Below are positions 45,997 to 50,100 of a DNA stretch of 51,378 bases, one piece after another (within the stretch, counting starts at the first letter, position 1; every line of letters starts with the position of its first letter). The DNA lies in NCBI GenBank assembly GCA_038231135.1, contig JBBRLX010000032.1, forward strand, positions 1 to 51,378. The letters run 5' to 3'. The stretch comes from Candidatus Eiseniibacteriota bacterium (GTDB lineage: Bacteria > Eisenbacteria > RBG-16-71-46). The notes below the pieces were generated by a model, which was not told where the DNA came from, made no database searches, and worked only from the letters and a program-made list of their open reading frames with translations. The translations under genes were made by a program, and so were the position numbers.

Positions 45997-48900
45997 ATGA
46001 ACCGCACCACCGATTCGTTCGGCGCCCGTATTCCGTTCTCCCTGCCCGGCGCCACCACCCCCGTACATCTCTACAGCCTCGACCGGTTCGCGAAGCAGGC
46101 GGGCATCGCGCTCGAACGGCTGCCCTACTCGATCCGCGTGCTGCTCGAATCCGCGCTGCGCAATTGCGACGGATTCCAGGTCACCGAGGCCGACGTGCTG
46201 CGGCTCGCGCGCTGGACGCCGCGCCAGCCCGAGCCCGTCGAGATTCCGTTCAAGCCCGGCCGCGTGATCCTCCAGGACTTCACCGGCGTGCCGTGCGTCG
46301 TCGACCTCGCCGCGATGCGTGACGCCGTGAAGCGCATGGGCGCCGACCCGGCGAGCATCAATCCGCTGGTGCCGGTCGACCTCGTGATCGACCACTCGGT
46401 GCAGGTCGACGTGTTCGGCAATGTGCTCGCGCTCGAGCGCAACGCCGAGATCGAGTTCGCGCGCAACCGCGAGCGCTACGAGTTCCTGCGCTGGGGCCAG
46501 AAGTCGTTCCGCAACTTCCGCGTGGTGCCGCCGGCCACCGGCATCGTCCACCAGGTGAATCTCGAATACCTGTCGCGCGGCGTGATGTTCGTGGAACAGG
46601 ACGGCGTCCGCGTGGCGCTGCCGGATTCGCTGGTCGGCACCGACTCGCACACCACGATGATCAACGGGCTCGGCGTGGTGGCGTGGGGCGTAGGCGGCAT
46701 CGAAGCCGAGGCCGTGATGCTCGGTCAGCCGCTCTACCTGGTGATGCCGCAGGTCGTCGGATACAAGCTCACCGGCGCGCTGCGCGAGGGCGTCACCGCT
46801 ACCGACCTCGTGCTCACGGTCACGCAGATCCTGCGCAAGAAGGGCGTCGTCGACCAGTTCGTCGAGTTCTTCGGGCCGGGCGTGTCGCGCATGTCGGTCG
46901 CGGACCGCGCCACCATCGGCAACATGGCTCCCGAGTACGGCGCCACGATCGGATTCTTCCCGGTCGATGCCGAGTCGCTGGCGTATTACGAGCGCACGAA
47001 CCGCGCGGAGTCCGCGCGGCAACTGGAAGCCTATACGAAGCTGCAGGGCCTGTTCCGCACCGACGACTCGCCCGACCCGGAATACACCGACATGCTGGAG
47101 CTCGACCTCGGCGACGTCGAGCCGAGCCTCGCGGGTCCCAAGCGGCCGCAGGACCGCGTCCCGATCCGCGACGTGAAGGGCTCGTTCCGCCGCGCGCTGA
47201 CGGCGCCCGTGAAGGAACGCGGCTACGGCCTCAAGGACTCGGAGCTTGGCCGGCACGCCGAGGTGCCGATCGACGGCCGCATCGACACGCTCACGCACGG
47301 CTCGGTGGTGATCGCCGCGATCACGTCGTGCACGAACACCTCGAACCCCGCCGTGATGCTCGCCGCCGGGCTCGTCGCGCAGAAGGCCGCGGCGCTGGGG
47401 CTCCAGGTGCCGAAGCACGTGAAGACCAGCATGGCGCCCGGGTCCAAGGTGGTGACGTCCTACCTCGACGAAGCGGGGCTGACGAAGCCGCTGGAGGCGC
47501 TCGGATTCCATACCGTGGGATACGGATGCACGACGTGCATCGCTGCGGGCACCGGCGTGCTGCTGTCGGATGGCACAGCGTGGGCGATCGAAAATCTGCC
47601 GCGGGAGGGTGGTACGCAGGTGTTCGGCCCGACCTCCGGCCGCGAGCTGAAGGTGGCGTCGCAAGTCAGGCGCATCGACCAGGGCATGCGTGAGTGTGTT
47701 TCGATCGTGCTGCAGGACGGACGCACGCTGGTCTGCACGCCCGACCACGAGCTGTTGCTGGCGAGCGGCCGCTGGGTGCGCGCCGATCAACTCGAGCTGG
47801 GAAGCGACCGCGTGGTGATGGGCCTCGAGGCGCCGCTCGACCAGGTGGGGACGGACGAGACTGGCTACGAGCTCGTAATGGGCGAGCTCCGGCTGTCGAT
47901 GGAGACGCCGGCGGCGCGGCGCCGAACGCTCGCGTTCGCGCGGCTGCTCGGTCACGTTCTGAGTGACGGCTCGATCAGCACCCACGGTCAGGGCCGCATG
48001 AATGCCGGTCAGGCCATCGATCGCGACGCGATGCTCGCCGACATCGAACTGCTGACGGGTAAGCGGCCCGCGGCCGCGAGCTACGACGAGCGTACGTGGT
48101 CGGTCGTGCTGCCCATGGATCTGACCGCGGCGATCCTCCGTCTGCCGGGCGTCCTGTCCGGGCGCCGGATTCATCCGGAGCCCACGCTCCCCGAGTTCGT
48201 GCTGAGCGACCGTTGCCCGGTCGCCGTGGTGCGTGAGTTCCTCGGTGGAATGTTCGGAGCGGACGGGCATGGGCCCGTGTTGAAGCGCCAGGGTTCCCGC
48301 GAAGGGGATGCGATGCTCGAAGCGCCGGCGTTCTCGCGCAGCACCGTGCCGGACCACGTCGGCGATCTGCGAGCCGTCATGGGCAAACTCGTGCTGTTGC
48401 TCGGCCGGTGCGGAGTCCGCGCCGAGGGAGCCAAGATCTACGACTATCCCACGCGCCGTTCGGCATCTTCCTACCCCGCGGCTCAGGACGGCGCCGAGCG
48501 CGTGGAGGTTCGACTCGAGCTCCCGGACGGCCTGTCGTTCGTGGAACACGTGGGGTTCCGCTACTGCGTCGACAAGTCGATGCGCGCCAGCGCCGCGGCC
48601 GTCTACTGGCGCACCGTCGCGAAGATCGGGGAACAGCGACTGTGGCTGTCCGAGCGTCTCACGGAGCGGGCAAAGCAGGAACGCGATCTCTCGTTCCAGA
48701 AGACGCGCCAGGCGGTGGCGACGGAGTTGATGGAGCGCGAGACGCCGGTGTTCGAGATCGGCTCGCTGTTCGAGGAACTCGATCGATTGTCTCCGGACGC
48801 GACGTCGCTGCCCACGTTCACGCTTCAAGTCGTCGACCGGCGCCCTGCCGGTCTGCGCGAGGTGTTCGACCTCACCGTTCAGGGCCTGCACGCGTTCGTG

Positions 48901-50100
48901 GCGGGCACCGTCTGCGTGCACAACTGCATCGGTAACTCCGGTCCGCTCCCCGCGCACATCGCCGACGCGATCACCGCCGAGGATCTCGTCGCGGCCGCGG
49001 TGCTGTCCGGCAACCGCAACTTCGAAGGCCGCGTGAACCCGCACACGCGGGCGAACTACCTGGCGTCGCCGCCGATGGTGGTGGCGTTCGCGCTCGCGGG
49101 CCGCGTCGACATCGACTTCGCCACCGAGCCGCTCGGCACCGGGTCCAACGGCCGGCCGGTGTTCCTCAAGGACGTGTGGCCCACGCATCACGAGGTGCTG
49201 TCGGCGATCCGCGAATCGCTCAAGCCCGAGCAGTTCGCACTCCAGTATGCGAACGTGTTCGACGGCAATCCGCGCTGGAACGCGATCCCGGTGCCGGAGG
49301 GCCAGCTCTACGCGTGGGATCCCAAGTCCACGTACATCCACGAGCCGCCGTTCTTCCAGCATCTGACGCCGGAGCCGAAGCCGGTGCGCGACATCACGGG
49401 CGCGCGCTGCCTCGTGCGCGTCGGCGATTCCGTCACCACCGATCATATTTCGCCCGCGGGCGACATCGCGAAGGGCAGCCCGGCCGGCCGCTGGCTCGAG
49501 GACCGCGGGCTCGAGAAGGCCGATTTCAACTCCTACGGATCGCGGCGCGGCAACGATCTGGTGATGGTGCGCGGCACGTTCGCGAACATCCGTCTCAAGA
49601 ACGCGCTGGTGCCGGGCAGCGAGGGCAACATCACGGTGCACCTGCCCGATCAGGAGCAGATGTCGATCTTCGACGCGGCGGAGCGTTACCGCGCCGAGGG
49701 CGTGCCGCTGGTGGTGCTGGCGGGCAAGGAGTATGGCGCCGGCAGCTCGCGCGACTGGGCGGCCAAGGGCGTGCTGCTGCTCGGGGTGCGCGCCGCGATC
49801 GCCGAGAGCTACGAGCGCATCCACCGCTCGAACCTGGTCGGCATGGGCGTGCTCCCGCTCCAGTATCCCGCGGGCAGCACGGCGGATTCGCTGGGGCTCA
49901 CCGGGCGCGAAACGTTCGACATCACGGGTCTCGAGGGCGGGCTGTCGCCGCGGATGACGGTGACCGTGCAGGCACGGCGCGACGACGGCTCGACGATCTC
50001 GTTCCCGGCGATCGCCCGGCTCGACACGCCGGTCGAGGTCGATTACTACCGCAACGGCGGCATCCTGCAAACGGTGCTGCGAAATCTGGTCAAGGCCTGA
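45997..50100 (+). CDS. acnA: Aconitate hydratase A precursor containing an intein (1367 aa; 904 aa after splicing)
   Basis: LPYSIRVLLE, QDFTGVP, DHSVQVD, GTDSHTTM, AITSCTNTSNP, GCTT|CIGNSG, SGNRNFEGR, TTDHISPAG, YGAGSSRDWAAKG, YYRNGGIL. Confidence 0.97.
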   Translation: MNRTTDSFGARIPFSLPGATTPVHLYSLDRFAKQAGIALERLPYSIRVLLESALRNCDGFQVTEADVLRLARWTPRQPEPVEIPFKPGRVILQDFTGVPCVVDLAAMRDAVKRMGADPASINPLVPVDLVIDHSVQVDVFGNVLALERNAEIEFARNRERYEFLRWGQKSFRNFRVVPPATGIVHQVNLEYLSRGVMFVEQDGVRVALPDSLVGTDSHTTMINGLGVVAWGVGGIEAEAVMLGQPLYLVMPQVVGYKLTGALREGVTATDLVLTVTQILRKKGVVDQFVEFFGPGVSRMSVADRATIGNMAPEYGATIGFFPVDAESLAYYERTNRAESARQLEAYTKLQGLFRTDDSPDPEYTDMLELDLGDVEPSLAGPKRPQDRVPIRDVKGSFRRALTAPVKERGYGLKDSELGRHAEVPIDGRIDTLTHGSVVIAAITSCTNTSNPAVMLAAGLVAQKAAALGLQVPKHVKTSMAPGSKVVTSYLDEAGLTKPLEALGFHTVGYGCTTCIAAGTGVLLSDGTAWAIENLPREGGTQVFGPTSGRELKVASQVRRIDQGMRECVSIVLQDGRTLVCTPDHELLLASGRWVRADQLELGSDRVVMGLEAPLDQVGTDETGYELVMGELRLSMETPAARRRTLAFARLLGHVLSDGSISTHGQGRMNAGQAIDRDAMLADIELLTGKRPAAASYDERTWSVVLPMDLTAAILRLPGVLSGRRIHPEPTLPEFVLSDRCPVAVVREFLGGMFGADGHGPVLKRQGSREGDAMLEAPAFSRSTVPDHVGDLRAVMGKLVLLLGRCGVRAEGAKIYDYPTRRSASSYPAAQDGAERVEVRLELPDGLSFVEHVGFRYCVDKSMRASAAAVYWRTVAKIGEQRLWLSERLTERAKQERDLSFQKTRQAVATELMERETPVFEIGSLFEELDRLSPDATSLPTFTLQVVDRRPAGLREVFDLTVQGLHAFVAGTVCVHNCIGNSGPLPAHIADAITAEDLVAAAVLSGNRNFEGRVNPHTRANYLASPPMVVAFALAGRVDIDFATEPLGTGSNGRPVFLKDVWPTHHEVLSAIRESLKPEQFALQYANVFDGNPRWNAIPVPEGQLYAWDPKSTYIHEPPFFQHLTPEPKPVRDITGARCLVRVGDSVTTDHISPAGDIAKGSPAGRWLEDRGLEKADFNSYGSRRGNDLVMVRGTFANIRLKNALVPGSEGNITVHLPDQEQMSIFDAAERYRAEGVPLVVLAGKEYGAGSSRDWAAKGVLLLGVRAAIAESYERIHRSNLVGMGVLPLQYPAGSTADSLGLTGRETFDITGLEGGLSPRMTVTVQARRDDGSTISFPAIARLDTPVEVDYYRNGGILQTVLRNLVKA
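47536..48924 (+). mobile_element. Intein with LAGLIDADG homing endonuclease inserted in acnA
   Basis: Block A CIAAGTGVLLSDG; block B LVCTPDHELL; LAGLIDADG-like LLGHVLSDG and FLGGMFGADG; blocks F/G EVFDLTVQGLHAFVAGTVCVHN then +1 Cys; removal restores GYGCTTCIGNSG. Confidence 0.95.

Follow-up and report, generated by a model that had tools for sequence, protein, structure and literature searches.

A class-1 intein at an iron-sulfur ligand cysteine of aconitase A likely splices and likely persists as a selfish homing element

What does an intein do in the middle of a tricarboxylic acid (TCA) cycle enzyme, and what keeps it there? The question is raised by a 51,378-nt stretch of DNA from Candidatus Eiseniibacteriota bacterium (assembly GCA_038231135.1, contig JBBRLX010000032.1, positions 1 to 51,378; hereafter the window), in which the gene for aconitase A (acnA) is interrupted in frame at a cysteine assigned to its [4Fe-4S] cluster. 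An earlier note, made from the sequence alone, had read the insertion as a homing-endonuclease intein in an atypical host and at a possibly undescribed site. The host is indeed unusual: in a published survey, bacterial intein hosts fall mostly into COG L (61.5%) and COG F (21.7%), which cover replication and repair and nucleotide metabolism (PMC4760082). Here, we propose with fair confidence that the element is a class-1 intein within the C-T-T-C motif of AcnA, which likely splices and is likely maintained as a selfish element through homing.

First, the insertion lies exactly where it had been placed (Table 1). Its 463 codons run stop-free from Cys1 through the terminal His-Asn, the junctions read GYGCTT/C... 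and ...VHN/CIGNSG, and its removal leaves, as predicted, a 904-aa AcnA in which the exteins abut, meeting at residues 504/505 of the IRP1 chain 2b3x in the alignment. This protein passes the NCBIfam model TIGR01341 (AcnA) with 1330.7 bits (cut-off 945) and remains below the cut-off of the AcnD model (764.9 vs 1419.85). The exteins can be aligned to AcnA/IRP1 over their whole length, with the ligand cysteines in register. C437, C503 and C506 of IRP1 are named as cluster ligands in 10.1101/2020.08.04.235721. With a one-residue offset between the 2b3x chain and the protein numbering, assumed from the alignment, the +1 Cys matches C506 and is the third cluster ligand, as had been proposed. In the precursor, Cys-3 and the intein Cys1 themselves make a C-T-T-C. 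The host genome (4.09 Mb, 69% GC, 93% complete) holds a single AcnA by tblastn, the sole aconitase found there, and no AcnB match was obtained in this 93% complete assembly. The intein has a third-position GC of 0.85, compared with 0.92-0.93 for the exteins. An independently assembled contig of run X1 covers 47319-49025 with zero differences, spanning both junctions and the internal deletion described below, which argues against misassembly; run X1 may be the source sample itself, and the match does not count as an independent occurrence.

Second, the splicing domain appears complete. All class-1 residues are present (C1, T68, H71, D445, H462, N463 and the +1 Cys), the translation has Leu at position B12 and Asp at F4, and the class-3 WCT is absent. 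C1, T68 and H71 are invariant across 81 aligned rows, and none of the 20 conserved positions of the C-terminal Hint part (Hint-C) is altered in the window copy (0/20). As for profile hidden Markov models, Pfam Intein_splicing (PF14890) recognises the Hint domain with 39.1 bits (cut-off 35.8), TIGR01443 (intein C-terminus) passes with 17.9 (cut-off 15.6) and TIGR01445 (intein N-terminus) falls slightly short with 22 (cut-off 24.5). The family profile matches residues 1-95 of the Mtu RecA intein with an E-value of 1.7e-11. The structural model of the window copy has a predicted local distance difference test score (pLDDT) of 89.1, with residues 409-416 below 50, and its Hint domain superposes on 2in0 with a Z-score of 22.1 and a root-mean-square deviation (rmsd) of 2.0 over 137 residues, at 31% identity. 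The identification as an intein from Cys1, TxxH, block F, His-Asn and +1 Cys is therefore upheld by motifs, Pfam and model fold.

Third, the two LAGLIDADG-like motifs were found at precisely the positions announced and read LLGHVLSDG and FLGGMFGADG in the translation. No Pfam LAGLIDADG family is matched by the intein sequence; the endonuclease itself is sustained by the two catalytic aspartates of the motifs, both of which the window copy retains, and by the predicted fold. Indeed, the endonuclease model of the window copy aligns with I-Tsp061I (Z 15.7, rmsd 3.6, 194 residues aligned), and Atlas neighbours of the intein carry PF14528. The model of a full-length family member (pLDDT 92.5) also matches the I-DmoI fold, and its best Foldseek matches are TliVMA, PI-PfuI, PI-SceI and PI-TkoII, with E-values from 1e-14 to 4e-10.

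A feature that the note had not remarked on is a deletion of 54 aa in the window copy, relative to the usual intein length of 517 aa, which removes most of the accessory domain. The gap corresponds to reference residues 420-473, between the endonuclease and Hint-C, a segment with 21 positions conserved at 90% or more that is recognisable even in viral PolB inteins; in the part retained just before the gap, 5 of 8 conserved positions are altered. The endonuclease core departs from the family at 6 of 126 conserved positions, against 11 in its sister P0003, and Hint-C too fares no worse than in P0003. The core count overturned a first impression of a decaying core, drawn from 19 departures against a median of 5 in a biased set. 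An undeleted variant in run X2 was likewise considered and rejected, no loose end or joint being listed. In a study of TliVMA, removal of the accessory domain left the Hint and endonuclease folds and the cutting of the homing site in place, with weaker DNA binding and an altered cleavage profile (PMC8966425). By these results, the window copy may home less well and need not be dead: splicing is probably retained, and homing may be weak or of altered specificity.

Other forms of shortening occur at the same site. Accessory-domain deletions of other kinds are found in three more genomes of the family (483, 482 and 478 aa). Among 197 proteins with both junctions, 189 inteins measure 500-524 aa, one is longer, five are 450-499 aa and two are mini-inteins, in a sampling that over-represents full-length copies. 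The mini-inteins have 175 aa (L184:1276-1800, minus strand, genome G011, same family) and 178 aa (P0128); since their linkers differ, they likely represent independent endonuclease losses. At NCBI, a protein identical to the 175-aa mini-intein allele is assigned to Candidatus Eisenbacteria. In the single-contig genome G013 (L024, G013:C1), the acnA intein is broken by frameshifts and stops; its exteins also shift frame, which makes decay and sequencing error equally likely causes.

The AcnA intein allele is widespread, not a rarity. The intein search gave 906 protein matches among 8000 scored candidates. All of the best 120, query included, contain an aconitase domain, and 119 have both junctions, with GCTT or GCTS before the Cys and N before CIG, the remaining one being N-terminally cut; same-site insertions, suggested as a database check, are thus numerous. 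Of 421 candidate stretches from metagenomes, 318 proved to be relatives, and in 76 of the best 80 loci the two junctions share a reading frame, always at the AcnA site. Among the source names are Acidobacteriota, Chloroflexota, Gammaproteobacteria, Deltaproteobacteria, Ca. Eisenbacteria and an archaeon, with the breadth of distant relatives under-sampled. The occurrence is patchy at every scale. In its own phylum the intein is present in 26 of 206 genomes, 25 of them in the family of the window genome, itself counted; it occurs in 24 of the 88 other genomes of this family, in 2/16 and 8/18 within two genera, and is absent from the sole genome of the same genus. Samples of the class Blastocatellia and of an archaeal class gave 11/251 and 2/201. 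One unpublished genome contributes to the count of 26 and another to that of 11 (G026, G454). Two rows from unpublished genomes (L003, L009) entered alignments A1 and A2 and hence the first fold, and such rows also form part of the identity comparison and of one comparison of flanking codons; the dN/dS analysis and the trees exclude them. L005 and L007 have an identical acnA locus, assigned to the window's family by genome search and to Chloroflexota by the public record; its extein clusters with those of the window's family, and taxon labels of this kind cannot be trusted entirely. A viral scan with the single protein found nothing, and in RNA data no holder was listed.

Several observations point to homing. 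While extein identity to the window copy spans 79% to 51%, intein identity stays at 54-70%; in two archaea the intein is 60 and 57% identical and the host protein only 52%. On a 32-row host tree, for which occupied and empty alleles were taken from different searches, presence and absence require 10 changes (shuffled mean 10.9), at least 6 of them forced by well-supported branches. In approximately unbiased (AU) tests, the intein data reject a host clade for genus g22 (p 2e-38) as well as for Acidobacteriota (p 0.018). The ratio of non-synonymous to synonymous substitution rates (dN/dS), from 24 disjoint pairs among 94 full-length loci, is 0.16 for the endonuclease, 0.13 for the accessory domain, 0.18 for Hint and 0.10 for the extein.

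The codons around the site also bear a footprint. We compared 23 occupied with 17 empty alleles of the own phylum. Third-position A/T reaches 29% in occupied vs 10% in empty alleles at codons -6 to -1 and 22% vs 11% at codons +1 to +6, and is 9% in both at codons -200 to -61. Ser+5 is TCG in 1/23 occupied and 14/17 empty alleles, TCG making up about half of the other Ser codons in both sets; Gly-4 is other than GGC in 19/23 vs 3/17, and Cys-3 is TGT in 15/23 vs 2/17. The excess fades over some 20-30 codons from the site, and the tract after the intein is weaker. When homing breaks are repaired, flanking sequence is copied along with the element, and the footprint likely reflects such co-conversion. 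Three further empty alleles, which differ at residue -2 (CCS, CCT and CLT; L013, L019 and L022 of genomes G001, G021 and G022), bear occupied-type codons (TGT 3/3, TCG 0/3); they may once have hosted the intein or may resist cutting. Thr-2 is missing in 2 of 197 occupied proteins, which speaks against a strict need for Thr-2.

A number of points weigh against homing as the explanation. A single clade for the 19 inteins of own-phylum type is not rejected (AU test, p 0.31); some of the patchiness may therefore stem from an old gain followed by losses. The clades tested were picked after a first tree, and the trees were quick ones (LG+G4, no bootstrap). The loci behind dN/dS came from a ranking on similarity to intact inteins and are thereby biased towards intact copies. 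The alleles of the codon comparison are kin, so its p-values are overstated; a weak A/T excess remains far downstream (9.1 vs 6.5%), and slow codons at a folding junction could yield a similar footprint. Finally, no match to the intein, and thus no carrier, was found among annotated phages or plasmids.

Motifs and established intein chemistry make class-1 splicing of the AcnA precursor likely. Cys1 would form a thioester with Thr-1, the N-extein would be passed to the +1 Cys and Asn463 would then cyclise, the ligated C-T-T-C providing two of the three [4Fe-4S] ligands. On this view, AcnA would load its cluster and become active only after splicing, and we strongly infer that aconitase activity depends on it. 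The endonuclease would cut the conserved empty acnA site, and repair would insert the intein plus some flanking codons. The site would suit the element because a near-invariant Cys serves as +1 residue and only precise loss is tolerated. The family displays stages that a homing cycle would be expected to produce, namely full-length, partly deleted, mini-intein and empty alleles.

Outside aconitase, the nearest relatives are inteins of metagenomic virus contigs, in PolB and in RNA polymerase subunit 2 (RPB2), at 24-28% identity and with E-values down to 3e-54; several of these contigs are labelled giant-virus genomes. In a reverse search from a PolB intein, PolB and RPB2 proteins made up most of the best 120 of 308 matches, which also held a few other hosts and one AcnA. 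Nearly all of 100 inteins cut from this match list have Cys1 and Cys+1, a few junctions being miscalled. Single relatives in other hosts were recognised from precomputed Pfam domains (Table 1). In a tree of 40 of these 100 inteins with 19 AcnA rows, the AcnA inteins form one clade (19/19 rows, support of 100 in the Shimodaira-Hasegawa-like approximate likelihood ratio test) on a long branch. The donor that such a phylogeny had been hoped to reveal did not emerge: neither donor nor sister is resolved in this tree, where long branches meet. Sequence homology nonetheless shows that AcnA and giant-virus-type inteins belong to one pool. Such viral inteins and their virus-mediated spread are described in PMC10710043 and PMC5784728.

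Could the intein instead serve its host as a switch that responds to redox state or to metals? A disulfide between Cys-3 and Cys1, or between Cys1 and Cys+1, would keep aconitase, an oxygen-sensitive enzyme, in the form of a precursor lacking the cluster until conditions become reducing, an idea that is compatible with homing. The precursor naturally has C-T-T-C1 and the +1 Cys, the genome's only aconitase found is the one bearing the intein, two mini-inteins live on without endonuclease, and Cys-3 is present in 197/197 proteins, the search pattern having required it. There are also precedents. According to two reviews (PMC3922620; PMC10663303), a native Cys-3/Cys1 disulfide controls activity in the Pyrococcus abyssi MoaA intein and a Cys1/Cys+1 disulfide exists in Pab PolII; oxidation also affects the SufB intein of M. 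tuberculosis, according to an article which adds that inhibition by cysteine redox is not universal in class 1 (PMC6195587). However, Cys-3 is a cluster ligand found in all empty alleles as well, so the Cys-3/Cys1 geometry is given by the site itself and is no sign of selection. Two cysteines within the intein, C54 and C67, are likewise invariant in three viral PolB inteins, 190 of 197 copies have at least 500 aa, the endonuclease is under purifying selection, and most relatives, like the same-genus genome, do without the intein. As insertion at the second Cys of a CxxC gives this geometry automatically and close relatives lack the element, we regard adaptive regulation as unlikely. Equally doubtful is its broader form, a widespread redox switch on central metabolism in which a giant-virus-related intein and an aconitase ligand form a C-T-T-C disulfide trap. 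By analogy with the precedents, an incidental redox sensitivity of AcnA splicing is quite plausible. Were the switch real, cluster-free precursor would be stocked under oxidative stress and active aconitase released upon reduction, and the rare mini-inteins would be marks of domestication. Altogether, the evidence favours selfish homing over host regulation.

It is very improbable that the insertion is old and has passed down vertically with frequent loss, its endonuclease kept for a structural or other reason after homing had largely ended. Such a history would accord with the unrejected monophyly of the own-phylum-type inteins and with P0003, which is both the nearest intein to the window copy and among its nearest exteins. 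Against it stand the two host clades rejected by AU tests, an intein identity that is flat across phyla and into archaea, the codon footprint and the viable mini-inteins, which show that the Hint fold does not need the endonuclease. As for a broken window copy with inactive acnA, or a short form created by assembly, we give it hardly any credence: the deletion does lie near the C-terminal Hint strands and two contigs of run X2 meet near it with none bridging, but the frame is open, every splicing residue is present, the X1 contig spans the whole without difference, loose end or listed joint, the Hint model is confident, and the TliVMA deletion left both folds intact (PMC8966425).

The homing intein is thus an element of ordinary kind, and it is its host and site that were not found in searchable print. 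No description of an intein at the AcnA site was found in the searchable literature and supplements, in keeping with the suspicion of an undescribed site; InBase, subscription journals and bioRxiv supplements fell outside this search, and a listing there is possible. Three Joint Genome Institute protein names read 'aconitase A/intein/homing endonuclease', so automatic annotation has already flagged the AcnA intein. As a common allele of a TCA-cycle enzyme in several bacterial phyla and archaea, it is a clear exception among intein hosts, and it carries a homing endonuclease directed at a site conserved across domains. It connects prokaryotic metabolism with the giant-virus intein pool. Natural full-length, accessory-deleted, mini and empty alleles occur at one site with an easy activity read-out, and the family makes it testable whether redox-sensitive inteins are adaptive regulators or by-products of insertion at conserved cysteines.

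Among the 31 open reading frames (ORFs) of the window that were scanned, which are not all of them, the neighbourhood is that of an ordinary chromosome (ribosomal operon, ettA, SURF1, TonB), and no transposase or integrase model is among the matches listed. A 1170-aa ORF (23290-26799, plus strand) combines a TM0106 RecB-like nuclease domain with a superfamily-1-type helicase domain. Upstream of acnA and divergent from it, a 182-aa ORF (45023-45571, minus strand) has no NCBIfam match at 1e-5; it may be a YbaK/EbsC-type deacylase, which it resembles. Some 3 kb from acnA, a small ORF (42881-43321, plus strand) with two Cys-rich motifs (TLCRCGQSSNKPFCDSTH) has no NCBIfam match, and we take it to resemble a CDGSH iron-sulfur protein. 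The genome holds at least four inteins, counting those of FtsH, a DnaB-like helicase and AcnA. The FtsH precursor (L204:939-5774, G000:C9; 1611 aa stop to stop) has two full-length inteins in its AAA domain, 15 residues apart, the first beginning with Ser and the second with Cys. The DnaB-like helicase (L203:1767-3794, minus strand, G000:C15) has a mini-intein at ...DLRESG/C, with terminal His-Asn followed by Ser.

Table 1. Features of the intein-bearing acnA gene in the window, and intein relatives in single other hosts
Feature	Position	Strand	Remarks
acnA precursor gene	45997..50100	+	1367 aa = 904-aa AcnA + 463-aa intein
N-extein, 513 aa, C-terminal GYGCTT	45997..47535	+	aligned to IRP1 2b3x residues 32-504, E 7e-176
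First cluster ligand, Cys445 of SCTN	47329..47331	+	= IRP1 C437, by alignment
Upstream flank, ~20 codons, excess of A/T-ending codons in occupied alleles	47476..47535	+	likely co-conversion tract
Second cluster ligand, Cys-3	47527..47529	+	= IRP1 C503, by alignment
Intein, 463 aa, class 1, LAGLIDADG endonuclease	47536..48924	+	
N-terminal Hint part	47536..47835	+	Cys1 47536-47538; block B T68-x-x-H71 47737-47748
LAGLIDADG endonuclease core	47917..48615	+	motif 1 47944-47970 (D144); motif 2 48238-48267 (D243); confident model fold
Accessory-domain remnant	48751..48795	+	in-frame 54-aa deletion near 48792/48793
C-terminal Hint part	48799..48924	+	block F Asp445 48868-48870; His462-Asn463
C-extein, 391 aa	48925..50100	+	residue 1 aligned to 2b3x residue 505, E 1e-143
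Third cluster ligand, +1 Cys	48925-48927	+	= IRP1 C506, by alignment
Relatives in ribonucleotide reductase (RNR) small subunit, D5 primase-helicases, SNF2 helicase, EF-hand proteins			P0284, P0303, P0241, P0312, P0308, P0313

How does the AcnA intein compare with known systems? By profile and fold, its closest solved Hint domain is that of the M. tuberculosis RecA intein (2in0), with which it shares Cys1, TxxH, the block F Asp and His-Asn; the RecA intein differs in its host, and the profile match is limited to the splicing domain. The order of Hint-N, two-motif LAGLIDADG endonuclease, accessory region and Hint-C is that of TliVMA (7qss), PI-PfuI (1dq3), PI-TkoII (2cw7) and PI-SceI (1vde). Unlike these four, which are only 11-14% identical, reach a whole-chain TM-score of about 0.3 and reside in other hosts and sites, the AcnA inteins have an accessory region that opens with a long helix pair, and it is there that the window copy is without 54 aa. 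With the P. abyssi MoaA and M. tuberculosis SufB inteins, the AcnA intein shares an Fe-S-related host and, according to the reviews, with the former also the Cys-3/Cys1 spacing; these hosts have other folds, and redox control was demonstrated there and is hypothetical for AcnA. Giant-virus-type inteins of PolB (DHxG/CxHD and other sites) and RPB2 (GEMERD/CMxSH) are full-length homologues that keep the accessory-domain motif lost in the window copy; their insertions are non-allelic, and the AcnA inteins stand apart from them on a separate long branch. Finally, compared with aconitase A/IRP1 (TIGR01341; PDB 2b3x), the AcnA described here is interrupted between its second and third ligand cysteines.

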